A DNA stretch of 64,000 nucleotides from Candidatus Nanohalarchaeota archaeon (GCA_030634545.1 DAOWAN010000001.1:15010-79009), one strand, 5' to 3'. Counted from the stretch's first letter, positions 23,118 to 43,625 are shown. Notes: generated by a model not told the origin, from the letters alone. Numbers and translations: made by a program.

Positions 23118-23311
23118 TCTATCACTTCAGAGCAATCAATATTTGTTTAGCATAATCCGTCAATTCCATTGAAAATATTTAAACAAAGAGATATATATAT
23201 CTTACAGTGACAAGTAGTAATATAGGATTACCATAGAAAATATTCAGATAAGTCTGATTTGAAACACCAGCGACCATAGGATGATGGGATTCTATTTCGA
23301 AGAGAGACAGG

Positions 23312-25141: not shown

Positions 25142-25555
25142 TGTTTTTGGACATACACGAAGCGAATAATCATTATACCAGACGAGATAAAATATTTATG
25201 AGTAAATTGTTGCTGTTTTTCGAGCAACAGAAATAAATCGTTAAAGGGTAAATGATAAGAGAATGATTTATTCTGTGTGCGAATAGATATGCATTTTATG
25301 ATTTTTGCGCATTGTGTTTCAGGATAGTTTTTTACAATACCGAAATAGCAGTTTCTCTCGTGTATCTGCAAGCATATAAAGTGTTAAGTATTATAGTAAA
25401 ACAGCAGAATCCAATAATACCAAGAAGATATAAATATGTCATATTGTATATATTACATGTGTATATCATGTATGTTGGGATATTGGGACACAATATGTGG
25501 ATTATACGTATTCAGCTATGCGAATTAATGCATAGATGTTCTTGTTGGTGATGAT

Positions 25556-26305: not shown

Positions 26306-26314
26306 GGTTTTTTC

Positions 26315-27567: not shown

Positions 27568-28578
27568 TTAATGTGACTGATAATCAAACTTTAAATATTT
27601 AGCAGCCATACTTTCGCAGTAGCTGCATTTATTGCAGTTTTTGTCGCACAGTATAACTTTCGCATGAAAATCCATCAATTGTGCATTATCGATATATGCA
27701 TTGAATCGTTTTTTAAACGCATGTAAATTCGAATCCATCAACTCAAGGACATTGCCATCATATGATTCCTCCAGATAAGCTTTCGCCGCATTTATTATCC
27801 ATTCTTTATCTCTCGTGCGACCGGATATTTTAAATGATGACGTAATTCCCCTGTATTTTCCTGTATCCTCAGGACGTATCCAATTGGATTTAAATATCTG
27901 TGATGGGTCCATCTTATCTATAAGAGAGCAATTATTAAAAAAATGATCCGCAGAACGTTGACTTTCTTTGTTTAAGTGCGCCATATAGTTGAAATGAAAA
28001 ATGCGATAAGGACAGCGATACATACAACCTTCATTCACCATAATCCGAATGTCCGCATCAACTGCCTCCTTTATTTCCTTAAGCACCCCAATGTCCCTAT
28101 TTATATCGCGATCAGGCACAATTACATCTGCCCCCAGTTTATCATAGAACATCGCTCTTTGCACAGAATCAATCTCACCAAGCACAGACGCTGTGATGCG
28201 TATCTGTGGAAGCCGACTCTTCACAGTCTGTATAAGCAAAGGATTCGCGATAGTCAAAGCATCAAGATCACATGTCCTATACAGTTTGGCAATCGATTTT
28301 ATGAGCCTCTCTATTGTTTTCAAGTCATACGCTTTCGCGCCATCACATGTACTGTTCATAACTAGATTTGCACGGATATCATTCTCATGTATTAACTTTA
28401 TAGTATCCACGGTATTGATACCTTTTTTAGGAATCCTGCCGGATCCATATATCGCGGGATCTGAAAAATATATTTCATCAATCTTATTTTTGCAATCTCC
28501 TGTTTCCAGATACTGCATTAACTCATCTATCGTTTCAGAGTTGCCATTATAGGGTATTGAAAATTTAAGTGAACTCAT
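27568..28578 (-). CDS. peptidase-U32-family-like protein
   Basis: 336 aa. The layout is reminiscent of U32 proteins: SIPYNGNSETIDEL...IDEIYFSDP, then DALTIANPLLIQTV...PQIRITASV, then NEGCMYRCPYRIFH. The C-terminus carries a Cys cluster, CDKNCNKCSYCE. Confidence 0.55.
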   Translation of the reverse strand: MSSLKFSIPYNGNSETIDELMQYLETGDCKNKIDEIYFSDPAIYGSGRIPKKGINTVDTIKLIHENDIRANLVMNSTCDGAKAYDLKTIERLIKSIAKLYRTCDLDALTIANPLLIQTVKSRLPQIRITASVLGEIDSVQRAMFYDKLGADVIVPDRDINRDIGVLKEIKEAVDADIRIMVNEGCMYRCPYRIFHFNYMAHLNKESQRSADHFFNNCSLIDKMDPSQIFKSNWIRPEDTGKYRGITSSFKISGRTRDKEWIINAAKAYLEESYDGNVLELMDSNLHAFKKRFNAYIDNAQLMDFHAKVILCDKNCNKCSYCESMAAKYLKFDYQSH

Positions 28579-28581
28579 AAT

Positions 28582-29580
28582 CTACATCATTGTCTTTGTC
28601 ATTTTAATTTCTTTCGAACTTTGCGCACGATGAAACCCCATGTGTTCATTCACATGATTTACTATCTCATTCAATATTCCTTCAACCTCAGTATTTTTCA
28701 GGCTAGAGAATACTTTTTTGTTATCATATATTTCCACAATATACTCTGGTTTTTTATTGTGGTATGAGACACAGAGATTTTTAGATGAACTATTTATTGT
28801 ATCTTTTGAAGCTGTTTTGTCATGAATGACACTTAACGTATTTTGCGGACTATATGGAGCAAACGTAAGATGGACCTCGATTTGCCTGCTTTCTTTACTA
28901 TGCCTATTATTGGTCTGTTGCGTGTACATTCCCTCAAATCTGATGAGAACATGCTTCTTATTTTCATACTCTGTTTTGCAGGTCTTATTGCATATTGTAA
29001 TAAGAGAAAAACGACCTATATTTTTTTTAAGAAGTCGAAGACCTTTGAATAAATGCAATTGTTTCACTGATGGCGAGGATTTTATAATCAGTTCTGCAAG
29101 CGCTATCAATTTTGGATCCTTCTCTCTATTTATGAACTCATTACACACCCCTGGCAACTGATCATATCTTGTTGGCTCAAAAGACAAATTGACTAGCGTA
29201 AAAATTCTCGCGCCTTCTGTCCATGATAAGAAAGAGCATCCCTTCAGAATATGTTCTTTTACAGTGTCAACATATGGAATGTACCCAATATATAAGCCAC
29301 TACCTGTACCGTTTTGTATCTCATCGCATTTTTTAGCAAGTGCTGACATCACCAAAAGCCCCGGTTTTTTAAATTCCTCAATAACATACATGTACCCACT
29401 CGAAGAACCTATCCTTTTGTTTTCTTCTTTTGCAGTGTCATAGAGGAGGCATCCAAGATATACAGAATCCCTATCCGACTCGCAGCCATAGAATAACTCA
29501 CTATGATAATAGCCAGTATCTACTCTTTTTGGTACCTCTGTAAGAAGATTGCTCAATTTATTTATCATATTTTCTGTCAT
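28582..29580 (-). CDS. hypothetical protein (332 aa)
   Basis: Intact ORF 4 nt upstream of the U32-like gene on the same strand. No motif recognised. Confidence 0.4.
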   Translation of the reverse strand: MTENMINKLSNLLTEVPKRVDTGYYHSELFYGCESDRDSVYLGCLLYDTAKEENKRIGSSSGYMYVIEEFKKPGLLVMSALAKKCDEIQNGTGSGLYIGYIPYVDTVKEHILKGCSFLSWTEGARIFTLVNLSFEPTRYDQLPGVCNEFINREKDPKLIALAELIIKSSPSVKQLHLFKGLRLLKKNIGRFSLITICNKTCKTEYENKKHVLIRFEGMYTQQTNNRHSKESRQIEVHLTFAPYSPQNTLSVIHDKTASKDTINSSSKNLCVSYHNKKPEYIVEIYDNKKVFSSLKNTEVEGILNEIVNHVNEHMGFHRAQSSKEIKMTKTMM

Positions 29581-29772: not shown

Positions 29773-31200
29773 ATGAAAGTCGCTCTAATATTCCCACCAT
29801 ACAAACACAAAAAGTTTGCAGAAAACGTGAATGTAGTTGATGAAGAATTCGGGTGTTATCCACCTCTTGCACTTGCCTATACTGCCGCGATTTTAGAAAA
29901 TAAAAAACATGATGTCATCATTATTGATTCTAATGCACTTAGCATCTCTAAAGAAGAGACACTTGAAAAACTAAAAAAATTCAATCCGGATGTCATTAGC
30001 TTTAATCTCCATTCAGTCTATTCCTTCTTTGACACACTCGAATGGATAAGATACTTTAAGCAAAACACAAAACTGCCGATAGTAGCTGGCGGAAACATTG
30101 TACCTGTCTATCCACGCGAAATCATGAAATACAATGTGATTGACTACATTGTTTTGGATAATTCCCTGAAATCCCTGCCAAAACTGCTCTATGCACTGGA
30201 TAACAAAAAGACATACAATAAAATAAAGGGAATAGGCTACAGAAAGAATAACAGCACTATTGTAATCAATAAATCAGATGCAAAAGATTATTACTGCAAT
30301 CTGGACGAACTTTTCATGCCGGCAAGGCATCTTCTGCCAAACGACAAATATTACTCTTTTATATCAAAGAAAAAGAATTTCACGATAATGCTCACTTCAA
30401 GAGGCTGTCCTTACAATTGTGTTTTTTGTGCAATCAGGAAAGACAAGTATTTACAGAGAAACCCAAAGAAAGTAGTGGATGAGATTGAGATATGCATAAA
30501 AAAGCATGGTATCAGAGAAATAGATTTTTTTGATGCAACATTTACTGCAAATAAAAAATGGGTTTCACGTTTCTGCGCTGAAATAAAAAAAAGAAATCTG
30601 GTAGTTGACTGGTCATGCAGGACACGCGTAGATTGTGTAGATGACAAACTTCTCTACACAATGGCAAATGTAGGATGCAAAAGAATATACTACGGCATTG
30701 AATCAGCAGATGAGGAAGTACTTAACTCCATATCAAAAGAGATATCTTTTTCACAGGTAAAAAAAGCCATCATCCTCACAAAGAAACATGGCATCAAAGC
30801 ACTCGGCTTCTTTATGATTGGAAATCCAAATGATACAAAAAAATCAGTTGAAAAGACAATTCAACTTGCAAAAGGACTTAGTCTGGACTATGTACAGTTT
30901 TCAAGGACAATACCAAAACCAGGCACCGATCTGGAAAAGGAATTATCTGGCGCTGACAGTGATTACTGGAGAAATTACATTAAAGGCATTGTACCAGAGA
31001 GAAGAATCAAGACAAATTATTGCAAATTAAGTGACAAAGAAATAGAATACTATACTAAAAAAGCATATATTACATTCTACTTGAGACCAAAATACGTTTA
31101 TCATACACTAGGTGAAATCCGCTCATATCATGAGTTCAAAAGATACATAAAAGCCGGTCTGTTCATGATTATGTCTTTTTTCTCATCTGACAATTCGTAG
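29773..31200 (+). CDS. B12-binding-domain radical SAM enzyme (class B type)
   Basis: An N-terminal Rossmann-like B12-binding segment (KVALIFPPY...HDVIIIDSN) is followed by MLTSRGCPYNCVFCA (CxxxCxxC). Confidence 0.8.
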   Translation: MKVALIFPPYKHKKFAENVNVVDEEFGCYPPLALAYTAAILENKKHDVIIIDSNALSISKEETLEKLKKFNPDVISFNLHSVYSFFDTLEWIRYFKQNTKLPIVAGGNIVPVYPREIMKYNVIDYIVLDNSLKSLPKLLYALDNKKTYNKIKGIGYRKNNSTIVINKSDAKDYYCNLDELFMPARHLLPNDKYYSFISKKKNFTIMLTSRGCPYNCVFCAIRKDKYLQRNPKKVVDEIEICIKKHGIREIDFFDATFTANKKWVSRFCAEIKKRNLVVDWSCRTRVDCVDDKLLYTMANVGCKRIYYGIESADEEVLNSISKEISFSQVKKAIILTKKHGIKALGFFMIGNPNDTKKSVEKTIQLAKGLSLDYVQFSRTIPKPGTDLEKELSGADSDYWRNYIKGIVPERRIKTNYCKLSDKEIEYYTKKAYITFYLRPKYVYHTLGEIRSYHEFKRYIKAGLFMIMSFFSSDNS

Positions 31201-32263
31201 AACCAGACTGCTTGCATTTTACAAGCATTTTATCAGACTTATTCATGAAAAATGCACCGATTATTGCAGGATAGATATAATCTATCACAGATATCAAAAG
31301 ACCTGCACCAAGAAGTGATTCATAAGATGCATAATTTGCGAAGAATATAAGAATCAAGCTTTCTCTTGCTCCGAAACCGGATATTGTAAGTGGCAGTTGA
31401 CAGAGGATAATTGTTATACTCATAAAGAGCACATATTCTATGAATGGTATATAAATGCCAACTGAAAGAAAGATGATATAATAATTTACAATTATCAAAA
31501 GCTTATTCAAAAAACAATATACAGAGATCTTAAATATATTTTTGTATGCACCCCCACATTTCATATTAATTGATGATACATATGATAATTTAGAAACAAC
31601 TTTCTTTAGATGGCACGATTTTTCAATCACATTTAGAATAAACTGTTCTATCCATTTTCTCTTGAGTATGACAATAAAAAACGTAAGAAATAAAATACAG
31701 ACTATTATCAGTTGATTAACTGAGGATACTAAAATAAATGAACTAACAAGAATTATCAGAATTATATTTATTATACCCATGATGAGATGAAGTGTAACAG
31801 ATGCTGCTGAAATTTTTATAGGTATATTATTATATTTTTTGAGATATATGGATTTTACAAAGTGACCCAGTTTTAGCGGTATAACAGTTAGTACAGGGAT
31901 AACTGATGCATTAATGATTATGGATTCCCTGTAAGTTATATTATACCCAAATTGTTTCAATATCTGCATCCACACATGTGAACTAAATATTATATTTGTA
32001 CATACAGATATCACAAGACTAAGTAAAATCAGAAGAATATTTGCACCAGTTACAACTTCTATTGTTTGACCAATATTTACTTTAGAGAATATTATCCAAA
32101 ATATAGCAATTGTTATTAGTAATGTGATTAGTGTTCTATAAATGATTTTTGATTGTCTGGTAATATTAAGCATATGACGACAATCAAAAAGCTTGGGATT
32201 CATAAATTTTAACCAATATCCAATGATTTTTGATTTTTGCAATTGCATTATAAATAACAACAT
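31169..32263 (-). CDS. polytopic membrane protein, flippase-like (lysyl-PG-synthase TM-region/UPF0104-like)
   Basis: 364 aa with about 8 hydrophobic helices. It lies directly downstream of the DPM1-like GT2. The family call is tentative. Its 3' end overlaps the convergent B12-rSAM gene by 32 nt. Confidence 0.45.
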   Translation of the reverse strand: MLLFIMQLQKSKIIGYWLKFMNPKLFDCRHMLNITRQSKIIYRTLITLLITIAIFWIIFSKVNIGQTIEVVTGANILLILLSLVISVCTNIIFSSHVWMQILKQFGYNITYRESIIINASVIPVLTVIPLKLGHFVKSIYLKKYNNIPIKISAASVTLHLIMGIINIILIILVSSFILVSSVNQLIIVCILFLTFFIVILKRKWIEQFILNVIEKSCHLKKVVSKLSYVSSINMKCGGAYKNIFKISVYCFLNKLLIIVNYYIIFLSVGIYIPFIEYVLFMSITIILCQLPLTISGFGARESLILIFFANYASYESLLGAGLLISVIDYIYPAIIGAFFMNKSDKMLVKCKQSGSTNCQMRKKT

Positions 32264-32269
32264 GTGATT

Positions 32270-33010
32270 TCAGTATTGATTATTTTTAAGTAATCTTCGA
32301 ATATACAGTTTCATGAGCATTTTTATGTTCCCAATAAGGTCATTCGTACTGTATTTCGGTCTTCCTGCTCTTCGCTTGCTGAATATAATCGGTATTTCTC
32401 TTATATTACATTTTTTGTCGATGAATTCAAAGAGAATTGCCACCTGAAACGAGAAATCATCAGGAAGCACATCAAGATTTACCTTATTTATTGCGCTTTT
32501 CTTGTATAGCCTATATCCACTTGTGATATCCCTGACATTTGATTTCAAGAAGAATTTATATAGCATTGACCCAATAATAGGAAATATTTTTCTCACATAG
32601 GCATCGTTTCTCTCGCCACCGCGTATAAATCTTGAGCCAATTACAACATCAGAACCATTCTCCATGGCTTTCATAAAGCACATTATTTCCTTCGGATCAT
32701 GAGAAAAGTCTGCATCCATTTCCATGAGATATGTACCTTTTGCTTTTTTAAATCCATATTTATATGCACTGCCAATACCTTCCTTTCTGAGACGCGTATA
32801 TAGCCGTATATTTTGGTCAGTATTGCATTTTGTACTTTTAATAATCTTTTTTACAACATCAGAAGTACCATCTGGCGAATTATCATCAATTATCAATATC
32901 TCATAGCTAATCATCTCACTTTGCATGACTGCCTGTATTTTAGTAATAATCCCTTTGATGTTCTCACATTCATTATATGTTGGAATTATTATAGATATCA
33001 TGGTTTTCAC
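32270..33010 (-). CDS. GT2 polyprenyl/dolichyl-phosphate hexosyltransferase (DPM1-like)
   Basis: Motifs are ISIIIPTYNECENI, IIDDNSPDGT and MEMDADFSHDP, as in dolichol-phosphate mannose/glucose synthases. Confidence 0.85.
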   Translation of the reverse strand: MKTMISIIIPTYNECENIKGIITKIQAVMQSEMISYEILIIDDNSPDGTSDVVKKIIKSTKCNTDQNIRLYTRLRKEGIGSAYKYGFKKAKGTYLMEMDADFSHDPKEIMCFMKAMENGSDVVIGSRFIRGGERNDAYVRKIFPIIGSMLYKFFLKSNVRDITSGYRLYKKSAINKVNLDVLPDDFSFQVAILFEFIDKKCNIREIPIIFSKRRAGRPKYSTNDLIGNIKMLMKLYIRRLLKNNQY

Positions 33011-34002
33011 GTTATGACTCTGACAGGAGTAAGTGCACTAAGTCTGAATGCCATCAGATAGCTTAATTCCAGTGACCCACAGAACCCACACCCACTGCAT
33101 TTGACACCAGGCATATGATCAAACGCTTTCTTAAACCCACCACCCGGTCCAGCACAATTGTATACTTTTTCTGTATACTCTATCCTGTCGCAAGGTATCA
33201 CATCTCCATTTGGCTGTACCATGCAAAATATTCTGCCAGCAGCACAGGTTATATTTTCGTATCGCGGCCAGTTATAGATGTGATTCAACCCATCAACAGT
33301 ATTTCGTATGTGTATATTGCCCTCTCCTTTTAGTTGAATCAGCTTTTCAATGCATTTTTTGAAATCTTCTTTTGATGGAGATATAGAACCCATACCTTTT
33401 TTACCTCTATATAGTTCCTTAAGTGGCTGTAAAGCTACAACTGTATTGAACTGGCGCGCTTTCTCAAGAATAAAGTCAATATGACCAATATTATGCTTCG
33501 TAAGTGTTGTCGCAAATGTGAACCGTATATTATTCTTTTTGCATACTTCAGCAGCCCCTATTACCGCATCATATGTATTCCCGCCCCTGATCATCTCATG
33601 GACATTTTTTGGTCCGTCCAGACTGAGTTTGATAAGATCCAGATTTCTGATCTCTCCTACCTTTTCACTCACAAGCGAACCATTCGAGTTCATACTGACA
33701 GAGATATCCTTAGTCTTACAGTAATCTATGATTTTCCCGATATCTTTCCTAAGCAATGGCTCGCCGCCGCTGAATGATATCCTCTGCGTACCGAGTTTTG
33801 ACATCTCGTCAATGACCGAGAATATTCGTCTTGTTGACAGTTCTTTTGAAGAATCTGCAGGAGCGCACCATAAATTGCAGTACAGACACTGCTGATTACA
33901 TCTGCTCGTCAGATTCCAGCGAACCGCAAGAGGCGTCTTTTTATTGAACACTTTTGCGCCTGCAATTGCCATACCGGACTTTATTTTATTTTTTAGTTTC
34001 AT
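33007..34002 (-). CDS. radical SAM/SPASM-like enzyme, paralog 1
   Basis: Motifs are NLTSRCNQQCLYCNLW (CxxxCxxC) and FSGGEPLL. C-terminal auxiliary Cys motifs are CAAGRIFCMVQPNGDVIPCD and CSGCGFCGS. The ATGA start/stop overlaps the downstream GT2 gene. Confidence 0.8.
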   Translation of the reverse strand: MKLKNKIKSGMAIAGAKVFNKKTPLAVRWNLTSRCNQQCLYCNLWCAPADSSKELSTRRIFSVIDEMSKLGTQRISFSGGEPLLRKDIGKIIDYCKTKDISVSMNSNGSLVSEKVGEIRNLDLIKLSLDGPKNVHEMIRGGNTYDAVIGAAEVCKKNNIRFTFATTLTKHNIGHIDFILEKARQFNTVVALQPLKELYRGKKGMGSISPSKEDFKKCIEKLIQLKGEGNIHIRNTVDGLNHIYNWPRYENITCAAGRIFCMVQPNGDVIPCDRIEYTEKVYNCAGPGGGFKKAFDHMPGVKCSGCGFCGSLELSYLMAFRLSALTPVRVIT

Positions 34003-35587
34003 TCAACCCACCAGATGATTCTGCACCAGGTATTATTTCGTATATCTTATATCTGTCACCAGAGTAATATAGTTCTTTATCATAGTCTTTTATGACTTCA
34101 CAGAAGCGCACATAATAGTTCAATTTACAATGTTCTTCAAATTCATCTTCAAAATCAATAAGATATATGTTGCATTTTGTATTGCTGTTATTGCAGACAT
34201 TTAAAATAGGTATAGCCCCCTCATTGTGGAGCTGCCATGCAGTATGTACGTTTTGTGGTGGATAATCCCGATATAGGAGTTCAAATGCATTCTTTGATTG
34301 CGGGTCAACAAATATCAGATAGCTATATGATTTATTTGTATTATTGAATATCGCATATATCTCTGGTAGTCTTAAGTCAGTCCAGCGCAGTGGTTGAGCA
34401 ACAAAATATTTGCAGTCTCCCATGGGTTTCTGGCACTCTATTGTTATGTATAACGCTGACATGAGTACAATTACTGCCAAAATGAGAGATACAATATTTT
34501 TATATTTTGTTTTAAGGAGTTTTGAAACCGAGTATGATTCTAAAATAATAAATGGCAGTACGAAAAATAAAAAGTATCTGGTCCCGATGTGTTTATTTAG
34601 AATGAAAGGTATCAGAACTATCGAGAGCCACAATATTAAAAAAAGTATCTGTTCACGGATTCTTATAATGACCTTTTTATCTAATAGATATAAGACAGGC
34701 AGAGTCAACATGAGAAATGTTATGTGAAAATTGTATTGAAATATTTCCAGCAGCGAGATAATATTTTTAGTCAGATATGTTGCGCCGAATTGTCCTTCAT
34801 AAAAATTTTCATGCGTTATCTCCGCAATATAAGGCAAAGTAAGTAAAATGCATAAAATAGCATATATACAGATATACATCTTATTTTGCATCTTGATTGG
34901 ACTTTTTTTGTGGATAAAATATAGAATCAACACCAATAGCAGGATAGTTTCTTCTTTTTTTATCAGACCGCAAAAGAGTATTGAAATATATGTCAGAAAA
35001 TACATCTGAGGCTCTTTTGACTTCACAGAAAGCAGGATAAGTATCAGACTGAGCATTATAAAGAAAGATGTAGTTATTTCCACTCCATGCGTACCAGAAA
35101 AGAAGATATGCCATGGAAGCAAACAAAGAATAAGTGCACTCACCATTGCCGCTTTTATATCCTTGAATAACAGATATGTAAGCAGAAACAGCATTATGAT
35201 AGAGAGACTGCCGATAATCATATCAAATAAATGCGATGAGAAGACTATATCCCCAGTCAATGAATATATTGGTGATATGAGAAGCGAGTATCCGCGCGTA
35301 TCCAATGCCGCAGGTATTTTTTGATCTTCTGATATATATATAACAGCATCCCTATGCGACCAGACAGAGACACCGGTAATTGTTTGCATTGGAGAATATG
35401 CGAAGCGCAGGATGAAACCGAAAACAGTTATGATAAGTAAGATAGCCAATGTTTTTTTGCTTATTTTTCTGTACTCGCTTGTAATTATTTTATGGTTTTT
35501 CAAAAGGAAGACAATTAATAGAGAAAAAACAAGGATATAGTAATACATTCTTGTTGCAGGGTCCAGAAAAAAAAGATTATAAGGCAT
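33986..35587 (-). CDS. large polytopic membrane protein, GT-C-like (GT39/ArnT-type candidate), paralog 1
   Basis: 533 aa with about 11-13 TM helices and a soluble C-terminal domain. It is clearly paralogous to 35649..37217 and 38474..40216 (shared FFLD..TRMYYY, TRGYSLL.SP.YSLTG, LLPWHIFFSGT and KSKEP segments). Confidence 0.5.
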   Translation of the reverse strand: MPYNLFFLDPATRMYYYILVFSLLIVFLLKNHKIITSEYRKISKKTLAILLIITVFGFILRFAYSPMQTITGVSVWSHRDAVIYISEDQKIPAALDTRGYSLLISPIYSLTGDIVFSSHLFDMIIGSLSIIMLFLLTYLLFKDIKAAMVSALILCLLPWHIFFSGTHGVEITTSFFIMLSLILILLSVKSKEPQMYFLTYISILFCGLIKKEETILLLVLILYFIHKKSPIKMQNKMYICIYAILCILLTLPYIAEITHENFYEGQFGATYLTKNIISLLEIFQYNFHITFLMLTLPVLYLLDKKVIIRIREQILFLILWLSIVLIPFILNKHIGTRYFLFFVLPFIILESYSVSKLLKTKYKNIVSLILAVIVLMSALYITIECQKPMGDCKYFVAQPLRWTDLRLPEIYAIFNNTNKSYSYLIFVDPQSKNAFELLYRDYPPQNVHTAWQLHNEGAIPILNVCNNSNTKCNIYLIDFEDEFEEHCKLNYYVRFCEVIKDYDKELYYSGDRYKIYEIIPGAESSGGLNETKK

Positions 35588-35648
35588 TATACTTATAATA
35601 GCCTCTCATTTTTTTATATCTCTCATAAAATATTGTATTGATTGCTTT

Positions 35649-37217
35649 TTATTGTGTGATGTTTGCATAATGATATATTTCATATATATCTCCAGAATAA
35701 TATAGTTCTCTTTTACGATCTATAAGTATTTCTTCAGCAAGTTGCAGGTCAATATCATCTTCAAAGAAAATAAGATAGATGTTATAGTTTCCGTATTGGT
35801 TCACAGCTTTATCCTCAATACAGCCCTCGTCAGAGATAGTTTGGCTATTATAGTATTTCCATGCTTCACCATCATCCAATACAATGTATGGATGACAATT
35901 GCCATAAAGAGTAATATACGCTTCCTTTGCCTGATTGTCCAGAAACAAGACCAGCATATCTTCCTTGTTTGTATTATTTAATATCGCATGTATCTTGGAT
36001 AATTTTGTGTCAGTTTTTTCCAGAGGTTGTGCTATAAGGTATTTACAGTTACTGTTTTCTGCGCATTCTGAATAGACATATGTAACAGAAAAAAGAAGCG
36101 CAGCCACTAAAATCAGGGATGTCTGTATTTTATACTTTGTCTTTAAAAGACCTGATATTGCAAATGATCCGAGTATTATGAAGGGCACTAAAAAGAATAC
36201 AAAATATCTGGTATGTATATCTCTATGAATCAGGAAAGGAATTATAGTTATTGAAAACCATAAGACTAAAAATAATATCTTTTCACTCTTTTTGATAATT
36301 ATTTTTTTGTTTACCACATACAGAACAATAGGTGCAAGCATAAGCAATATAATGTAGAAATTGTATTTGAATATTTCTAGTATAGATATTACGTTTTGAC
36401 TTATGTAACCTGATTCTAATAGCCCTTCCTCAATCTTACCATGCAGTGCATCAATTATGAATGGTAAAAATAGCACAGCAGCTGTAAGTAAATATGTAAT
36501 TACATGATATTTTCTTTGCATTTTTACCGGGTTCTTTTTGATAAGAAAATAGATGATAAAAACAATAAGCAAAATCATTTGTTCTTTTCTTACCAGAGCG
36601 CAGAACAATAATGATATAAATGCAAGAAAGTAAATGTCTGGTTCCTTTGACTTAATCGAGAGGAATATCAATATAATAGAGAGCATTCCAAAAAATGACG
36701 CTGTTATCTCCATACCGTGCGTACCTGAAAAGAAGATATGCCATGGAAGCAGGCAGAGTATGAATGCACTAATCATCGCCGCTTTCTGGTCTTTGAAGAG
36801 TAAGTATGTGAGCAGGAATAGCATTATGACAGAGAGACTGCCTACTACAATGTCAAAAGTATGCGCAGACCATACTATGTCCCCAGTTAATGAATATAGT
36901 GGAGACATTAAAAGAGAGTATCCTCTCGTGTGCATTTCTGAGCGTATAATCTGTTCTTCAGATATTTTTACAGCAGCATACCTATTGGACCAGACTGAAA
37001 CATTTGTTATTGTCTGCATAGGTGTAAACGCGAGGCGCAGTATAAACCCAATAAGGACTATGATAATTAGTGCATACCATGTTTTTTTGCTTATTTTCGT
37101 GTATTCAGTTGCGATTAATTTATGATTTTTAAAAAGAAGCATAACTAACAGAATGAAAATAAGCATATAATAGTACATTCTCGTTGAGTTTTCAAGAGAA
37201 AAAAAATCAATTATCAT
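35649..37217 (-). CDS. large polytopic membrane protein, GT-C-like, paralog 2
   Basis: 522 aa with the same conserved blocks as paralogs 1 and 3. Confidence 0.5.
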   Translation of the reverse strand: MIIDFFSLENSTRMYYYMLIFILLVMLLFKNHKLIATEYTKISKKTWYALIIIVLIGFILRLAFTPMQTITNVSVWSNRYAAVKISEEQIIRSEMHTRGYSLLMSPLYSLTGDIVWSAHTFDIVVGSLSVIMLFLLTYLLFKDQKAAMISAFILCLLPWHIFFSGTHGMEITASFFGMLSIILIFLSIKSKEPDIYFLAFISLLFCALVRKEQMILLIVFIIYFLIKKNPVKMQRKYHVITYLLTAAVLFLPFIIDALHGKIEEGLLESGYISQNVISILEIFKYNFYIILLMLAPIVLYVVNKKIIIKKSEKILFLVLWFSITIIPFLIHRDIHTRYFVFFLVPFIILGSFAISGLLKTKYKIQTSLILVAALLFSVTYVYSECAENSNCKYLIAQPLEKTDTKLSKIHAILNNTNKEDMLVLFLDNQAKEAYITLYGNCHPYIVLDDGEAWKYYNSQTISDEGCIEDKAVNQYGNYNIYLIFFEDDIDLQLAEEILIDRKRELYYSGDIYEIYHYANITQ

Positions 37218-37236
37218 CGTATCATCAATCAGCTTA

Positions 37237-38196
37237 TTACTTTTTTAAATACTTTATAAACAAAGCGATTTTTAGTTGAAAAAGCAGATTTAATTCAACA
37301 TTTCCAAAACAATTACATCTGCTGCATACAGGAAAATTAAGTTCTTGAAATCCCTTAAGGAACCCACCTCTGACATTAGGAGGATTCTCTCTGTTATTGC
37401 TTCTACTGCATGCATACATGCTTCCGTCAGGTTCTATCCTGCAAAATATTTTACCTGCACTGCAATTATTGTAATTAAAACCCTCAGGCTTGATAAAATG
37501 TCTTAGGCAATCTGTTGAGTTCATCACATTTTTTTCCTGAGTTAGCTTTCTAATTGCATCTGTAAACTTCTTTTTTTCAGGAATTATGTTTTTAACACCC
37601 TTAGCTGAAAATGTATATGTGTCTACAGGTTGGAAGAGAACACCGACATCCATATCTCTTGCAATTTTCAAGACCTCGTCAAGATGTTCAACATTGTACT
37701 TTGTTATCACAGTTGTGATGTCTACGTTTAAGCCATGCTCTTTTGCAGTCCGGATACCTTCAATTGTTTTTTTGTATGTTCCTTTCCCGCGATGTATTTC
37801 ATGTATCGACTTATCACCGTCAAGACTTATTGAAAGACGATTCAATGGCATTATGTCATCAATTTTTCTCTTCACAAGAGAGCCATTAGAGTTCATTGTG
37901 ACATAAATTTTGCATTCCCTTGCATATTGTATTATTTGTCCTATATCTTCTCTTAATAACGGTTCTCCACCTGTCAGAGAGAGTACTGCTGTCTTTGCAT
38001 TTTTCATTTCTTTGATTAGTCTTAAGATTTCATCTGTTGAAAGTTCATCAGGATTGTTTTTCCATACAGCACAGTACTTGCATGTATAATTACAGCGCCA
38101 CGTTAAAACACAACTGACAATGACAGGAATTTTTTCCTTAAAGAACTTTGCTCTTAGAATTCCTGTCCCTGCACGCAATTTATTTATGAGAGCCAT
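37237..38196 (-). CDS. radical SAM/SPASM-like enzyme, paralog 2
   Basis: Motifs are VLTWRCNYTCKYCAVW and LTGGEPLL. The C-terminal motifs are CSAGKIFCRIEPDGSMYAC and CSRCNCFGN. It is a paralog of 33007..34002. Confidence 0.8.
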   Translation of the reverse strand: MALINKLRAGTGILRAKFFKEKIPVIVSCVLTWRCNYTCKYCAVWKNNPDELSTDEILRLIKEMKNAKTAVLSLTGGEPLLREDIGQIIQYARECKIYVTMNSNGSLVKRKIDDIMPLNRLSISLDGDKSIHEIHRGKGTYKKTIEGIRTAKEHGLNVDITTVITKYNVEHLDEVLKIARDMDVGVLFQPVDTYTFSAKGVKNIIPEKKKFTDAIRKLTQEKNVMNSTDCLRHFIKPEGFNYNNCSAGKIFCRIEPDGSMYACSRSNNRENPPNVRGGFLKGFQELNFPVCSRCNCFGNVELNLLFQLKIALFIKYLKK

Positions 38197-38357
38197 ATCT
38201 TATCTTTATTGTAAGACATATTTAAAATCTTAGCTCTGCTATCTCTTAGACTCTCTTACTTTCAACATCATGATTTCACAGATATAGAATCTATTGACGC
38301 TATGAAATTCAGACATATCACTCAAATTGTCGGATTTACGAGATTTTATGATACAAG

Positions 38358-38441
38358 TCACCCGTAACGATATATCTCATATTTACCCCCGGGATAATAC
38401 ATTCTCGCATGAGTATCCAGAAAAAAGATATCCATTATCAT
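38358..38441 (-). pseudogene. 27-codon relic of a collapsed GT-C-like paralog
   Basis: It translates as MIMDIFFLDTHARMYYPGGKYEIYRYG*. This is the paralog-family N-terminus (FFLD.ATRMYYY) joined directly to the family C-terminus (YSGD.YEIY.Y). Confidence 0.5.
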
Positions 38442-38473
38442 AATATTTGCACCAAAAAACAATAACCATCCAT

Positions 38474-40216
38474 TCATGAGATAAGTTTCTCATAATAGTA
38501 TATTTCGTACTCATCTCCTGAATGGTATATTTCTCTTTTGCGATCTTTTAATATTTTTTTAATGCATCGCAGGTATTCGAAATCATAGAACATTTCAAAA
38601 TCATCTTCAAAGAGAATAAAGTATATATTATATTCCCTGTATCCACTTACAGATTTATGATCAAAGACAGAGCTAGTTGGATAGATTTCTTCGTCATATC
38701 TAAAAAAAAATCCAACGCAATTTTCAAGATCAGACGAATTGAAAGTACAACTAGACAGATTAAAGTCAGTTGTTTTATTGGTTCCATCTGCTCTGTTAGT
38801 TTCAACATTAACTATATTTTCAACACGGGATTCATTAGATATAACACTATTATAAAAATAACATGCCTCATCCACATTCAAAACAATATATCGATTATAT
38901 TTCCCAGAATAAGTAATATATGCCTCTTTTGTATCTCCATCTACAAACAGAACAAGCATACTTTTTTTGTCTGTATTATTTAATATGGTCTGTATCTGTG
39001 CAAATTTTGTAACAATTTCATCTGGAGACTGTGCATAAATGTATTCACAATTGCTGTCTTGCGTACAATCCGAATATACATGAATTGCTGACAAGAGTAA
39101 CGCCGCTATCAAAATAAGGATGACTTTTTCTTCATACTTTGTTTTAAGGAGACCTGATATTGATGATGACCCAAGTATTATGAATGGAACTAAGAAAAAT
39201 ATGAAGTACCTGTTATCTATATCATTGTGAATCATAAAAGGAATTATATTTATTGAATACCATAAAAGTAAGAATAATATCTGTTCTGTTTTTTTTATTA
39301 TGTTTCTTTTGTTTACCAGATATAGAACAACAGGTGCCACTATGAATAGTATTATGTAGAAGTTATATTCAAACATTTCAAGCACAGAGATTATATTCTG
39401 ACTCATATAAACAGAACCGATATCCCCCTCATCGATCTTACCATATAGTGCATCTATAAGAAATGGTATGACAAGAATCACAGCCATAAGCAAATATACA
39501 ATGATATTGATTTTTTTTCGTATTCTTATCGGATTCTTTTTGATAAGAAAGTAAATAATGAGAACCAGAAGCAAAATCATTTCCTCTTTTCTTATCAGGG
39601 CGCAAAACAGCAATGATATAAATGTGAGAAAATAAATCTCTGGTTCTTTTGATTTTATTGAGATGAGTATCAGTATTATTGATAGCATCACGAAGAATGA
39701 TGCTGTTAGTTCTTCTCCCTGTGTACCGGAAAAAAATATATGCCATGGAAGGGCACTTAGTATGATTGCGCTAATAATTGCTGCTTTCTGATCCTTGAAG
39801 AGCAAGTATGTAAGCAGGAAAATCATTATTATAGAGAGACTGCCTATTACGATGTCAAAGATGTGTGCAGACCACATTATATTCCCAGTCAATGAATATA
39901 GAGGAGCGATTAAAAGAGAATACCCTCTTGTATGCGTATCCTGAGGCATCATATGTTCTTCTGAAATAGATACAGCAATATTCCTACTGGTCCCCATAAA
40001 AATCTCTGTTGTCTGCATCTCTAAAAAGGCGAAGCGCACGATGAATCCAAGAATAGTTATGATAAATAACATTAACCATGTTTTTCTATTTATTTTTCTG
40101 TATTCACTTGTGATTAGTTTACGATTTTTCAAGAGAAGTATCATCAATAGCAAAAATACAAATATATAATAATACATTCTAGTTGCAGCATCCAGAAAGA
40201 AGAAATCATAAAGCAT
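38474..40216 (-). CDS. large polytopic membrane protein, GT-C-like, paralog 3
   Basis: 580 aa with the same conserved blocks. It has a longer, insertion-bearing C-terminal soluble domain. Confidence 0.5.
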   Translation of the reverse strand: MLYDFFFLDAATRMYYYIFVFLLLMILLLKNRKLITSEYRKINRKTWLMLFIITILGFIVRFAFLEMQTTEIFMGTSRNIAVSISEEHMMPQDTHTRGYSLLIAPLYSLTGNIMWSAHIFDIVIGSLSIIMIFLLTYLLFKDQKAAIISAIILSALPWHIFFSGTQGEELTASFFVMLSIILILISIKSKEPEIYFLTFISLLFCALIRKEEMILLLVLIIYFLIKKNPIRIRKKINIIVYLLMAVILVIPFLIDALYGKIDEGDIGSVYMSQNIISVLEMFEYNFYIILFIVAPVVLYLVNKRNIIKKTEQILFLLLWYSINIIPFMIHNDIDNRYFIFFLVPFIILGSSSISGLLKTKYEEKVILILIAALLLSAIHVYSDCTQDSNCEYIYAQSPDEIVTKFAQIQTILNNTDKKSMLVLFVDGDTKEAYITYSGKYNRYIVLNVDEACYFYNSVISNESRVENIVNVETNRADGTNKTTDFNLSSCTFNSSDLENCVGFFFRYDEEIYPTSSVFDHKSVSGYREYNIYFILFEDDFEMFYDFEYLRCIKKILKDRKREIYHSGDEYEIYYYEKLIS

Positions 40217-40437: not shown

Positions 40438-40887
40438 ATGAAAAGTGATGATAAAGCATCTTTTTTGAAAAATGTGGACTTTGATTTAAGTAAAAAAGTT
40501 ACCCGGATTAATTTGAATTCTATGCTTTACCCGCGCACTGTTGTGATGAGAGCAGCATACTCATTTACTGACAGTTTCGATGTCGCTGTCGAAGGAGACG
40601 ATTCATCCAGCATTGTTTTCATCAGGGATAATGGTAATGATAAGCTGACACAAGCGGATTTTGAGGACATTGCCTATCGTTTTTATTCCGAACTGATTCA
40701 TGCAAGTGTTGAAGAGACTCAGGCGCGAAGATACGCAGACACAAGAAATGCACTGATAGGAGCTGCACTGAAATCATTATTTCCTATTACTGGTTCTTTG
40801 AACATACCCAAAGACACAAAATCTCCCCCAATTAAAGAACCTAAATTAAAAAATAATATCAAATCTACAACCAAAAACTGCAAATAA
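40438..40887 (+). CDS. small soluble protein, HxsD-like candidate
   Basis: 149 aa. The pattern YPRTVVMRAAYSFTDSFDVAV...IVFI...FYSELIHASVEE...R.ALIGAAL recalls the His-Xaa-Ser system protein HxsD as I remember that family. It lies directly upstream of the Trp-repeat peptide. This assignment is from memory only. Confidence 0.4.
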   Translation: MKSDDKASFLKNVDFDLSKKVTRINLNSMLYPRTVVMRAAYSFTDSFDVAVEGDDSSSIVFIRDNGNDKLTQADFEDIAYRFYSELIHASVEETQARRYADTRNALIGAALKSLFPITGSLNIPKDTKSPPIKEPKLKNNIKSTTKNCK

Positions 40888-40975
40888 CGATTACAATAAC
40901 AGTTTCCACATAAGAATAAATCCCATAACACTCAATTTATTAGTGCCCTGACAATATAACAAAAAATAAGATGCT

Positions 40976-41299
40976 TTGCAAGTGCGTGGTATTGTGAATA
41001 TTAAAGATAAACTAAAGAAGATAAAGCAAATGGACTTATGGAAACCCGGTGACAATGAAAAGACCGGTGTTGTAAACGGGCTGATTCTCTTGGGTGCTGC
41101 TGTTGGAGCCACGCTGTCTTTCCAGGGTCATGATGCTTGTGCAGATGCACCCCTCTGTAGTAATGATGAATGGGGCAACTGGTCAGACTGGACTAATAGC
41201 TGGAACAACTGGTCAGACTGGACTAACTGGAGTGACTGGAGTGATTGGGAGCATTGGGGCAATTGGGGAAACTGGGGAAATTGGGGAAACGGTGACTAA
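40976..41299 (+). CDS. Trp-Xaa-(Asn/Asp/His) repeat peptide, candidate RiPP precursor
   Basis: The frame is open from TTG 40976, but the most likely start is ATG 41030 (MDLWKPGDNEK...). A hydrophobic helix (GLILLGAAVGATLSF) and HDACADAPLCSNDE are followed by WGN WSD WTN S WNN WSD WTN WSD WSD WEH WGN WGN WGN WGN GD. Synonymous codon variation preserves this frame. Confidence 0.65.
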   Translation: MQVRGIVNIKDKLKKIKQMDLWKPGDNEKTGVVNGLILLGAAVGATLSFQGHDACADAPLCSNDEWGNWSDWTNSWNNWSDWTNWSDWSDWEHWGNWGNWGNWGNGD

Positions 41300-41429
41300 C
41301 CAGTTTGATTGAAATACAGATTATAATAACAAAAGCCTGCAAATGGCTTTATACCGCTACAGACCATGCATGGCAATGTCCTGATTGTATAGTTCAGGTC
41401 GTTACTATCTGGACAAACTGAACCAAAAA

Positions 41430-41767
41430 CCAATAGACCTTAACTATCCGGGCGAATCTCAAAGATTCGCTGGATTTCGCAAATCGTACCGATTTCCTAT
41501 ATCGCCAAAAACGCATGCGTTTTTGCGACACTAAAATTCCCGAGGAATTTTAAGAGTTGCGAAATTAGGAATTGGGTAGCAATTTCGCAATCATAAAAAT
41601 CACAAAGTGATTTTTAATGATCCTAACAAATCACATTGATTTGTTGGATGCTAAAATTGCATCGCAATTTTAAGCATATGGAAAAGTCATATAGTCCATT
41701 TTGAAGACGATAGTCTTCGAAAGCTTGGCATGTAATGCCATGAAATAGTTATGACTTTTACTATATT
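41430..41767. repeat. mosaic hairpin-array intergenic repeat, copy B
   Basis: It shares its 5' end, a 98-nt identical block (41595-41692) and its 3' end with copy A. It shares a 117-nt block (41476-41592, 6 mismatches) with copy C. It ends 2 nt before the radical-SAM gene start. Confidence 0.85.
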
Positions 41768-41769
41768 AC

Positions 41770-43605
41770 GTGAACAATATGTTGAATTCAAAATTATATT
41801 GCGCTTTAGGTTATGCCTGTAATAATAACTGCCTTATCTGTGTTGTTGATTCTGAAAAAAAAGCCAAAGCAAACCTGCAGACCGTTGAAATTATTAACTA
41901 TCTAAAAATACTGGATACAAATCCCGAGATAAAGAATATTGAGTTTTCAGGTGGTGAACCTACAGTCAGACATGATTTATTTTATATACTTGACTGGGTG
42001 CACCAGCATCATCCAAGAATAACTTATACTATTTTCAGTAATGGACGACGCTTTTGCGATATTGATTTTGCAAATAAAATCTCAGGATATCCTGTAAAGG
42101 ATCTTCTTATTGCAATTCATGGCAAAGATGCAAAGACACATGATTTATTGACACAAAGAAAAGGAAGTTTCAATCAGACATTTATGGGCATCAGAAATCT
42201 TTCTGAGAACAAGGTTAATGTTGTCCTGAAGATCATACCCAACCAGCTGAATTATAGACAGATCCCGGACATTGTAAGGATGTTTGTCAGCCATTTCCCA
42301 TATGTCAGGACCATGACTATCAATGGAATTGATATCGGAGGTTGTGCTCTTGATAATATCGATAAAATAGGTCTTCGCCTTACAGATGCGATACCATATA
42401 TCCAGAAAGGACTGGACATCGCAAATGAGCATGGTCTGAAAGTTTGCACTTATTCAATACCAGAATGTCTGTTTGATGCAGAACATAGAAAATATGTGGG
42501 TCCCCAAAAGAGTCCCCTGTACAATTACAAGTCACCATTTCACGAACTGGACGACAAAGGTGACGAGTATGGATTTGGTCCTCTCTGCAGTGCTTGTTCT
42601 GCAAAAGACAACTGTGCCGGCTGCTGGAACACTTACTTAAGTGCTGTCGGGACCGATGAATTAAAACCGATAGTCAGACCAAAAAGCAATCCCTTATCAT
42701 CACCTAAACCCATGCAAAAAAATCGTTATGTTATTGAGATAACCGGTGCCTGTAATAATGATTGTATTTTCTGCCTGTACAACGGCAGCAGAAGTGAATC
42801 TATTTCATATGAAGATATTGTCTCACGCATACAAAGTTTTAACATGAAAAAGGGAGAGCAAGTATCATTATGTGGAGGTGAGCCGACATTAAGCATGGAT
42901 TTTGTAAAGATAATAGACTATGCTGTTTCAAAAGGGTTTCGCATCTCTGTAATATCAAACGGGAGAAAATTTTCAGATAAGCTATTTACAGAACAGGTAA
43001 TTAATGCCGGAGTATCTCATATCACTATTGATATACACGCTCATACAAAAGAACTTCATGACTCCATAACCCAAAAAGATGGGAGTTTTGATGAGACTGT
43101 TCGCGGCATAAGAAACCTGCAATCTACTGGCGTGGCACTCACACTCAAAGTGATAGTCAATAAACTGAATTATAGATATCTAAAAAACATCATTGAATTC
43201 ATTGCTGTAAATTTCACAGGTATAAAATCAGTCGTTTTTGCATCCATCAGTATCAGAGGCAGTGCATTGAAGAACAAAGAACAAGCAATTGTGAAATTGA
43301 ATGAAGCAGCACCATACATACAAAAAGCAATAGATAAAGCACAGGCATCAGGCATTCGTGTTGATCTGGATATGTTTCCATATTGTATTTTTGAACATAA
43401 GTACTTTAAGCAGATCCGTATGAGAAAACAGGACAATTTATTTCTTCTGGATGATAGTTGTGTTGTGAAACCCGACAATGCTTCAAGTGTTAAAGGCAGC
43501 TTTCCATTTTGCAGGGAATGCCGGTTCGCCAATAAATGCCCAGGTGTATGGAAAAACTACAGGGATATTTACGGTGAGAGTGAATTTAAATGTATTCACA
43601 AATGA
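41770..43605 (+). CDS. fused tandem-duplicated radical SAM enzyme (two HxsC-like halves)
   Basis: 611 aa. Half 1 has CALGYACNNNCLICVV, and half 2 (from about residue 315) has EITGACNNDCIFCLY. The halves align over SGGEPT, SNGR.F, TQ.KGSF..T..GIRNL, LK.I.N.LNYR and APYIQK. Each half ends with a Cys motif (CSACSAKDNCAGCW and CRECRFANKCPGVW). Confidence 0.8.
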   Translation: MNNMLNSKLYCALGYACNNNCLICVVDSEKKAKANLQTVEIINYLKILDTNPEIKNIEFSGGEPTVRHDLFYILDWVHQHHPRITYTIFSNGRRFCDIDFANKISGYPVKDLLIAIHGKDAKTHDLLTQRKGSFNQTFMGIRNLSENKVNVVLKIIPNQLNYRQIPDIVRMFVSHFPYVRTMTINGIDIGGCALDNIDKIGLRLTDAIPYIQKGLDIANEHGLKVCTYSIPECLFDAEHRKYVGPQKSPLYNYKSPFHELDDKGDEYGFGPLCSACSAKDNCAGCWNTYLSAVGTDELKPIVRPKSNPLSSPKPMQKNRYVIEITGACNNDCIFCLYNGSRSESISYEDIVSRIQSFNMKKGEQVSLCGGEPTLSMDFVKIIDYAVSKGFRISVISNGRKFSDKLFTEQVINAGVSHITIDIHAHTKELHDSITQKDGSFDETVRGIRNLQSTGVALTLKVIVNKLNYRYLKNIIEFIAVNFTGIKSVVFASISIRGSALKNKEQAIVKLNEAAPYIQKAIDKAQASGIRVDLDMFPYCIFEHKYFKQIRMRKQDNLFLLDDSCVVKPDNASSVKGSFPFCRECRFANKCPGVWKNYRDIYGESEFKCIHK

Positions 43606-43625
43606 TAATATCATGTGATTGATTT

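Follow-up and report, generated by a model that had tools for sequence, protein, structure and literature searches.

What do radical enzymes contribute to a pathway that appears to be built for decorating the cell surface with sugars? This question is raised by a gene cassette in a 64,000-nucleotide stretch of DNA from a Candidatus Nanohalarchaeota archaeon (GCA_030634545.1, DAOWAN010000001.1:15010-79009), referred to below as the window. Here, genes for two small radical S-adenosylmethionine (SAM) proteins (rSAM1 and rSAM2) are interleaved with genes for three membrane proteins of the glycosyltransferase (GT) C fold, and these are followed by genes for a soluble family-2 glycosyltransferase (GT2) and a flippase-like membrane protein. 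The logic by which a synthase, a flippase and a GT-C transferase act in sequence is found in textbooks. To our knowledge, no characterized system of this kind tailors its lipid-linked sugar by radical SAM chemistry. The reading that we favor, at a probability of about 0.5, is that the cassette serves envelope glycosylation by means of a lipid-phosphate-sugar synthase, a flippase and an outward-facing GT-C transferase, with an added oxygen-independent tailoring stage, i.e., that radical enzymes modify a polyprenyl-phosphate sugar before it is flipped across the membrane and transferred by the GT-C proteins.

This reading is supported by gene fusions in a related locus of Elusimicrobiales (L032, JAQTZB010000010.1, 5191-10001), where two adjacent genes encode a GT2 joined to a radical SAM domain (877 amino acids, aa) and a radical SAM protein with a B12-binding domain (referred to as B12-rSAM) joined to a GT2 (729 aa). 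Both fusion genes are located directly upstream of a small radical SAM gene of the rSAM1 clade. As precedents, the radical SAM enzymes Cds and HpnJ are credited, on the basis of their knockout phenotypes, with contracting the ring of lipid-linked sugars (PMC13459092).

Composition of the cassette

The features of the cassette, in the order of their coordinates in the window, are as follows.

27568-28578, minus strand: U32-family protein, 336 aa; Peptidase_U32 45 bits, weak match to TrhP
28582-29580, minus strand: partner of the U32-family protein, 332 aa; no Pfam or NCBIfam match; syntenic on contig L102
29773-31200, plus strand: B12-rSAM, 475 aa; B12-binding and Radical_SAM domains; convergent, overlaps the 3' end of the operon by 32 nucleotides (nt)
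31169-32263, minus strand: MprF-type flippase-like membrane protein, 364 aa; LPG_synthase_TM 91 bits, TIGR00374 55 bits
32270-33010, minus strand: soluble GT2, DPM1/ArnC/GtrB-like, 246 aa; Glycos_transf_2 113 bits
33007-34002, minus strand: small radical SAM protein rSAM1, 331 aa; same family as rSAM2, other clade
33986-35587, minus strand: GT-C-fold membrane paralog 1, 533 aa; PMT_2 28 bits
35649-37217, minus strand: GT-C-fold membrane paralog 2, 522 aa; PMT_2 34 bits, Foldseek match to ArnT 5f15
37237-38196, minus strand: small radical SAM protein rSAM2, 319 aa; CxxxCxYC and four invariant C-terminal Cys
38358-38477, minus strand: fossil of a fourth paralog, 39-codon open reading frame (ORF); N-terminal motif DIFFLDTHARMYY fused to C-terminal motif GGKYEIYRYG
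38474-40216, minus strand: GT-C-fold membrane paralog 3, 580 aa; PMT_2 43 bits; IFMGT in loop 1 in place of the D-E of the family

An earlier note on this DNA had placed the seven minus-strand genes, i.e., those of the three GT-C-fold paralogs, the two small radical SAM proteins, the GT2 and the flippase-like protein, correctly in order and coordinates, and the tight junctions to which it pointed are real overlaps, of 17 nt between paralog 1 and rSAM1 (33986-34002) and of 4 nt between rSAM1 and the GT2 (33007-33010). The unit was drawn too short in that note, which missed the B12-rSAM (29773-31200) and the U32-like pair (27568-29580), the two genes of which are 4 nt apart. Both are syntenic on another contig, L102, and therefore belong to the unit. 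The order on L102, with identities in parentheses, is GT-C (58%), GT-C (60%, ortholog of paralog 1), rSAM1 (68%), flippase-like protein (54%), convergent B12-rSAM (70%), a 322-aa protein (42%) and U32 (68%), i.e., that of the window without a GT2. The 39-codon ORF between paralog 3 and rSAM2 joins both terminal motifs of the GT-C paralogs and is the scar of an internal deletion in a fourth GT-C paralog.

The GT2 (PF00535, 113 bits) appears, from its matches, to be of the polyprenyl-phosphate-sugar-synthase type. Among solved proteins it matches the Pyrococcus furiosus Dol-P-Man synthase 5mlz best (E 3.4e-30, residues 4-228) and ArnC and GtrB next, in agreement with the DPM1-like assignment made earlier, and as in type-I DPM1 the protein (246 aa) is devoid of a transmembrane (TM) segment. 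The NCBIfam matches to AglJ, ArnC and PgfS are all under their cut-offs, so that the GT2 is not an ortholog of any named enzyme. The last gene of the operon is assigned to the MprF-type flippase-like family from its scores with PF03706 LPG_synthase_TM (90.6 bits, cut-off 33.4) and TIGR00374 (54.7 bits, cut-off 43.2), and its product would presumably act in flipping.

The membrane paralogs score 28.1, 34.0 and 43.0 bits (paralogs 1, 2 and 3, respectively) with PF13231 PMT_2, which is above the cut-off of 26.1 by a narrow margin; their matches to NCBIfam Agl23 are far under the cut-off, and a single-sequence search of the PDB with paralog 3 gave no match. A GT-C fold is supported by an AlphaFold2 model of paralog 2 (pLDDT 74, pTM 0.77), based on a 15-sequence alignment of window and locus proteins. 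In a Foldseek search of the PDB with this model, the best 27 matches were all GT-C enzymes (probability at least 0.94, TM-scores mostly 0.4-0.55), with unrelated transporters found only below them. The best match was ArnT 5f15 (E 8.5e-7), and the others included PglB, STT3, ALG12, ALG9, AftA, DPY19, AftD, Emb, PIG-U (chain U of the GPI transamidase 8imx), AftB and Pmt. About 12 TM helices are seen in the model, one of them an additional helix at the N-terminus, together with an alpha/beta C-terminal domain. Read with the positive-inside rule, the model gives a topology in which both the long first loop and this domain lie outside the cell.

The pairwise identity of the paralogs is 57-67% over residues 1-390, i.e., the TM core, and 32-52% from residue 391 to the end, as the earlier note had claimed in describing a conserved core and a diverging C-terminal domain. 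The external domain of paralog 3 also has an insertion of about 60 aa. Over their full length, paralogs 3 and 2 are 64% identical and paralogs 1 and 2 are 56% identical, i.e., these genes are recent paralogs.

Because a word-indexed homolog search returned only 7 proteins for the GT-C paralogs, an exhaustive profile search was used instead, which yielded 486 representatives of the wider family at E <= 1e-30; motifs were counted in an alignment of 145 of these. The loop-1 consensus of the wider family is D74-E75-x-x-Y78-x-x-x-A82-K83, where, of the 145 sequences, 99 have the D, 89 have the E and 80 have both, and the catalytic Asp of the STT3 "FDP" motif aligns to the same profile column as the family Asp. 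At the two acidic positions, paralogs 1, 2 and 3 have S-V, S-V and F-M, respectively, and the L102 ortholog has S-V. Other members of the GT-C family that are adjacent to a radical SAM gene usually keep D or E at these positions, which indicates that the loss is specific to the clade of the window. This clade has a conserved acidic pair of its own, E87-E/D88, further along loop 1, and the polar residues H160, R/K210, E212 and R337, found family-wide, are retained in a manner that would be compatible with binding of a lipid phosphate. The paralogs thus look, from their conserved residues, like functional GT-C-fold proteins with an uncertain catalytic mechanism. The earlier note had made its claim depend on both the fold and a catalytic acidic loop; the former is borne out by the 27 Foldseek matches, and the latter is replaced by SV, SV and FM.

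A separate observation concerns the external domain: four Cys residues of the wider family (positions 421, 479, 490 and 495 of paralog 2) are kept in 88-112 of the 145 representatives, and in paralogs 1/2/3 these positions read M/S/M, N/N/N, D/E/E and E/C/C. This replacement of most of the Cys residues is a second family feature lost in the clade of the window.

The small radical SAM family and its neighbors

The two small radical SAM proteins score 88 and 108 bits with Radical_SAM. In an alignment of 54 homologs the motifs CxxxCxYC and GGEPLL are invariant, as are four C-terminal residues (C245, C263, C291 and C294), and C252 is found in at least 90%. The spacing fits the first half-motif of SPASM (C-x12-G-x4-C, where the Gly is G258) followed by C-x2-C, and neither protein of the window matches PF13186 SPASM. 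This pattern suggests that the proteins carry one auxiliary cluster, i.e., that they are twitch-like, rather than a full SPASM domain. In the AlphaFold2 model of rSAM2 (pLDDT 93) the radical SAM core begins near residue 25 and is preceded by one helix only (residues 3-19), and an N-terminal peptide-recognition (RRE) domain is not found. The possibility that this helix is an amphipathic membrane anchor is not supported, as its hydrophobic moment of 0.23 equals the mean of the protein; the helix is only strongly basic. The Foldseek neighbors of rSAM2 at a TM-score of 0.6-0.7 include enzymes that act on peptides or proteins (SkfB, SuiB, PqqE, anSME) and others that act on sugars or nucleotides (BlsE, MoaA, viperin, DesII); BlsE is also matched in the profile search.

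No NCBIfam model, maturase models included, reached its cut-off for the small radical SAM proteins. Membership in the HpnH, HpnJ, mycofactocin maturase, PTO1314, NirJ and MoaA families was discarded, with every score under the cut-off. Against the profile of the family itself, members score at least 225 bits over their full length, other radical SAM proteins at most 203 bits. The small radical SAM family is distinct, unnamed and sharply bounded. It has members in Woese-, Iain-, Undin- and Nanohaloarchaeota and in Methanosarcinales, and among bacteria in Omnitrophota, Elusimicrobiales, Planctomycetota, Myxococcota, Patescibacteria, Armatimonadota and Auribacterota, often with two or three copies per locus.

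rSAM1 and rSAM2 are 39% identical. In a maximum-likelihood tree, rSAM1 is the sister of an Omnitrophota protein (54% identity, support 95/94) within a clade of Elusimicrobiales and Nanohaloarchaeota sequences, and rSAM2 is found in a separate clade with the archaeal metagenome contigs L014, L016 and L018 (support 97/97). The two are old paralogs, and because they belong to different old clades they presumably catalyze different steps. Tandem duplication of a unit of radical SAM and GT-C genes is ruled out by the low identity and the different, supported clades; the picture of duplicated blocks, each paired with its own radical SAM gene, which the earlier note had drawn, does not hold, the GT-C genes being the recent paralogs.

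The adjacency of radical SAM and membrane-protein genes is seen again in DPANN archaea, Methanosarcinales, Omnitrophota, Elusimicrobiota and Patescibacteria. The concern, raised earlier, that it might be conserved in no related genome does not apply, as it is kept across archaea and bacteria. Features within 10 kb were counted at 24 loci of the small radical SAM family and at 62 control loci, i.e., other radical SAM genes caught by the same GGEPLLRxDI pattern, and compared in a Fisher test; the profiles used were built iteratively from the counted loci, which are not phylogenetically independent.

B12-rSAM family of the window: 17 of 24 family loci, 2 of 62 control loci, Fisher p 1e-10
GT-C profile match: 11 of 24 family loci, 5 of 62 control loci, Fisher p 2e-4
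Protein of at least 430 aa with at least 8 TM segments: 16 of 24 family loci, 18 of 62 control loci, Fisher p 0.003

The B12-rSAM gene is usually located directly upstream of, and overlaps, the small radical SAM gene. This is also seen in the three contigs of the rSAM2 clade, L014, L016 and L018, each of which encodes 2-4 PMT_2-like proteins and another radical SAM/SPASM protein; further genes there encode DUF2079 proteins (L016, L018), a 295-aa radical SAM protein (L014, L016) and a cis-prenyltransferase (L016). A Nanohaloarchaeota contig displays an alternation of radical SAM, GT-C, radical SAM and GT-C genes, followed by those of a B12-rSAM, an AsnB-like protein and an LPG_synthase_TM protein. 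At the bacterial loci, the identifiable membrane partners are GT-C proteins of the YfhO type. Sugar enzymes are also encoded in related loci, i.e., DegT aminotransferases (L022, where DegT adjoins the cassette, and L034), AsnB-like amidotransferases (L021, L022) and GT4 proteins with a WecA-like transferase (L020). In L034 (CATXCY010000010.1, 8159-15417), genes for DegT, a small radical SAM protein, a B12-rSAM, another radical SAM protein and a second B12-rSAM lie beside the dcw cell-wall cluster; this locus is possibly a soluble version of the tailoring pathway.

Substrate of the radical enzymes

In the pathway that we propose, the soluble GT2 would, from its homology, act on the cytoplasmic side of the membrane and move a sugar from a nucleotide sugar to dolichyl or polyprenyl phosphate. 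The small radical SAM proteins and the B12-rSAM, possibly together with the U32 pair, would then alter this sugar on the cytoplasmic side, most likely still on its lipid carrier; candidate reactions are oxidation to a keto sugar, epimerization, deoxygenation, C-methylation and ring contraction. The MprF-type protein would flip the tailored product across the membrane, and the three GT-C-fold paralogs would deliver it to different acceptors by way of their divergent external C-terminal domains. The S-layer, the pilins of the neighboring genes, a glycan or a lipid are candidate acceptors. For this transfer the paralogs may use another acid (E87-E/D88), or they may not be conventional transferases. 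The analysis shows the identities of the domains, the GT-C fold, the conservation of the neighborhood, the fusions of GT2 and radical SAM domains in a related locus and the lost DE motif, and from these we infer the substrate, the chemistry and the acceptor alike. The earlier note had already read the GT2, flippase and GT-C genes as a glycosylation pathway; the GT2 type, the GT-C fold and the adjacency on which this reading was based have stood, and the canonical acidic loop, the block duplication and the extent of the unit have not.

Several points weigh against the proposal. The canonical loop-1 motif D-E-x-x-Y was not found by sequence alignment in any of the three paralogs or in the L102 ortholog, which makes transfer activity uncertain, and the L102 cassette has no GT2, which is thus not an obligate member. 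A large membrane protein is missing within 10 kb at about one third of the family loci, e.g., L034, and at such loci the substrate of the radical SAM protein could be a nucleotide sugar rather than a lipid-linked one. The solved sequences closest to the small radical SAM proteins are SkfB (E 4.5e-33), followed by CteB, PqqE and anSME, i.e., peptide maturases. The iterative building of the profiles from the counted loci and the non-independence of these loci belong here as well. Finally, the U32 family includes the oxygen-independent hydroxylases UbiU/UbiV and TrhP. The U32-like protein of the cassette is, by family membership, a possible hydroxylase of the UbiU/UbiV kind, and such an enzyme would be difficult to reconcile with sugar chemistry and would better suit a hydrocarbon or aromatic substrate.

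The last point leads to remodeling of a lipid, the best of the alternatives, which we regard as unlikely. In this case, the radical SAM proteins, the B12-rSAM and the U32 protein would modify an isoprenoid, i.e., the polyprenyl or dolichyl carrier or a membrane lipid scavenged from a host, instead of a sugar, by methylation, hydroxylation, C-C bond formation or an HpnH-like adenosylation, and the GT-C-fold and MprF-like proteins would handle or translocate the lipid. The loss of the DE motif and the L102 cassette without a GT2 would both fit, as would the fact that UbiU/UbiV-type U32 enzymes hydroxylate a prenylated lipid. The alignment of rSAM2 with the HpnH model begins at residue 2 and takes in the N-terminal helix (E 1.5e-25), and some homologs carry PF11946, the C-terminal domain of HpnH. 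The B12-rSAM is closest to BchE (166 bits) and HpnJ (161 bits), both far under the cut-offs, and also matches the model of a B12-rSAM for ladderane lipids. Characterized radical SAM enzymes acting on lipids are mostly of the HpnH-like or B12-rSAM types (PMC13459092). The scores with HpnH, HpnJ and Tes are, however, far under the cut-offs (e.g., 90 vs 225 for HpnH and 161 vs 578 for HpnJ), many unrelated radical SAM models match equally well or better, and neither HpnI nor HpnL is matched. The N-terminal helix is not amphipathic, the cassette occurs in bacteria as well as in archaea, two groups with different membrane lipids, and the related loci are rich in sugar enzymes and hold the GT2 fusions.

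Tailoring of a soluble nucleotide sugar before the GT2 step, e.g., oxidation or deamination in the manner of BtrN or DesII and then C-methylation by the B12-rSAM, with an ordinary three-component pathway as the remainder, would keep the sugar chemistry and shift only its place. It agrees with L034, where DegT, a family member and two B12-rSAMs are encoded without a large membrane protein within 10 kb, with the DegT gene adjoining the cassette in L022, and with the nucleotide-linked substrates of the structural neighbors BlsE, DesII and viperin. Yet the fusions put the radical SAM domains beside the lipid-loading enzyme (an arrangement compatible with either side of that step), the archaeal radical SAM genes are interleaved and translationally coupled with those of membrane proteins, and the cassette of the window contains no gene for nucleotide-sugar synthesis. 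We consider this order of events quite unlikely.

Maturation of a ribosomal peptide or surface protein, which the radical SAM proteins would cross-link or modify and a PMT-like GT-C protein would later glycosylate outside the cell, perhaps tied to the Trp-repeat Hxs-like system described below, is very unlikely: the solved maturases noted above, the protein O-mannosyltransferases among the PMT_2 relatives and an Hxs-like locus for a ribosomally synthesized and modified peptide, with its own radical SAM proteins, immediately upstream on the other strand would fit, but the family is devoid of an RRE or other N-terminal peptide-binding domain, the cassette has no conserved or plausible small precursor ORF, no Hxs genes were called beside the small radical SAM genes in 8 related contigs (gene and Pfam calls), and the family is linked to GT2, B12-rSAM, DegT and AsnB and, in a related locus, is fused to a GT2. 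The earlier remark that such enzymes usually act on peptides accordingly carries less weight here, where a peptide-recognition domain is missing and BlsE, viperin, DesII and MoaA are among the structural neighbors.

Tailoring of the polyprenyl-phosphate sugar can also be taken a step further, to a bolder picture that we consider rather improbable. The twitch radical SAM protein and the B12-rSAM would then be a mobile, cross-domain and strictly anaerobic sugar-remodeling pair that yields an undescribed envelope sugar (carbocyclic, branched or C-methylated), and the GT-C proteins without the loop-1 Asp would use a different mechanism or would have become non-catalytic receptors of the lipid-linked sugar or partners in its export.

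Genomic setting and known systems

The host is a metagenome-assembled genome (MAG) of 2.18 Mb (88% complete, 7.4% contamination) from cold-seep and marine-sediment metagenomes, i.e., an anoxic habitat, and the window is part of its contig C31. An aminoacyl-tRNA synthetase at the end of the window is 80-91% identical to the versions in MAGs of the same genus, so that C31 belongs to the lineage and a mis-binned contig is ruled out. In the other 41 species of the phylum that were examined, no member of the small radical SAM family was found, and the cassette is therefore an accessory part of the genome; it was probably gained by horizontal transfer. A search of sequencing runs yielded six of DNA, from cold-seep and marine-sediment metagenomes, and none of RNA, an RNA-only search not having been made. 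The cassette adjoins a large pilin cluster and the Hxs-like system, in a part of the genome where surface and accessory functions abound, and a glycogen module is located just upstream.

21057-27529: glycogen module; GDE-type debranching enzyme, eukaryote-type Glycogen_syn (PF05693, 477 bits), a GT4-like protein with the N domain only, and a complete GT4
40438-45920, plus strand: Hxs-like system, divergent from paralog 3; HxsD-like, HxsC-like and HxsB-like genes

The Hxs-like genes score 40 bits (HxsD-like, cut-off 50), 300 bits (HxsC-like, above the cut-off of 268) and 300 bits (HxsB-like, cut-off 370). The HxsC-like gene encodes two fused radical SAM domains, and a 107-aa candidate precursor (40976-41299) ends in Trp-Xaa-Xaa triplets where His-Xaa-Ser is expected. 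Treating the five neighboring radical SAM proteins as a single system was rejected, because the genes at 40438-45047 match HxsD, HxsC and HxsB beside a Trp-repeat peptide and form a separate divergent unit; gene and Pfam calls gave no Hxs genes in any of the 8 related contigs.

The pairing found in the cassette spans uncultivated anaerobes of both domains, i.e., DPANN archaea, Omnitrophota, Elusimicrobiota, Patescibacteria and Planctomycetota. The carriers are in many cases ultra-small or host-dependent, and their surfaces mediate attachment. Solving the chemistry would bring to light new sugars of the envelope, possibly along with a radical SAM reaction of a new kind, and would show what sets apart a GT-C subfamily without the canonical catalytic residue.

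Among characterized systems, the Arn system (ArnC/ArnD/ArnE-F/ArnT) adds aminoarabinose to lipid A, and GtrA/GtrB/GtrC glucosylates the O-antigen. As proposed for the cassette, a GT2 loads the polyprenyl phosphate in these systems, a membrane flippase step follows and a GT-C transferase acts last; ArnC and GtrB are among the best matches of the GT2. The Arn pathway also includes a modification of the lipid-linked sugar ahead of flipping, namely deformylation by ArnD, and its transferase ArnT is the structure that the paralogs match best. The cassette differs in that tailoring would be performed by radical SAM proteins and a B12-rSAM (plus the U32 pair) rather than a hydrolase, in that the flippase candidate is of the MprF type rather than GtrA or ArnE/F, and in having three transferase paralogs without the canonical loop-1 Asp-Glu.

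The hopanoid cassette HpnH/I/J/K/L resembles that of the window in combining a small radical SAM protein (HpnH), a GT2 (HpnI) and a B12-rSAM (HpnJ), and the HpnH and HpnJ models match over their full length. HpnL is a membrane protein of the LPG_synthase_TM type. The hopanoid system converts bacteriohopanetetrol glucosamine to a cyclitol ether, and HpnJ is proposed to ring-contract the lipid-linked sugar (PMC13459092). In contrast, the scores in the window are well below the cut-offs (HpnH 89.9 vs 225, HpnJ 161 vs 578), HpnI and HpnL are unmatched at E <= 0.01, genes for a squalene-hopene cyclase are missing, the GT2 is DPM1/ArnC-like and the host is an archaeon. GT-C proteins, on the other hand, are not part of the hopanoid hpn cassette.

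Cds, the calditol synthase of Sulfolobus acidocaldarius, is an archaeal radical SAM enzyme that converts a lipid-linked hexose to a carbocyclic head group, as assigned from a knockout (PMC13459092), which sets a precedent for radical chemistry on a lipid-bound sugar. It acts on a glycerol dialkyl glycerol tetraether membrane lipid of thermoacidophiles and has no reported link to a GT-C protein or flippase. The decaprenyl-phosphate-arabinose pathway of mycobacteria (DprE1/DprE2, Emb, Aft) likewise remodels a sugar on polyprenyl phosphate and employs several GT-C paralogs with different acceptors, and Aft and Emb are among the Foldseek matches of paralog 2. There, remodeling is an epimerization with flavin and NADH, catalyzed by enzymes without a sequence relationship to radical SAM proteins. 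The twitch and SPASM enzymes (BtrN and BlsE, which act on small molecules; anSME and SkfB, which act on proteins) share with the small radical SAM proteins the CxxxCxxC core and apparently a C-terminal auxiliary Cys motif, at TM-scores of 0.6-0.7; the small proteins differ in having no peptide-recognition domain, only four invariant auxiliary Cys residues and no match to Pfam SPASM.

A literature search found no paper describing such a cassette of radical SAM, GT-C and flippase genes. Compared with the above systems, what is new here is a defined family of small twitch radical SAM proteins, tightly linked to one B12-rSAM family, together with the fusions of GT2 and radical SAM domains, the L102 cassette that brings in the U32 pair, and a GT-C clade without the canonical catalytic motif.

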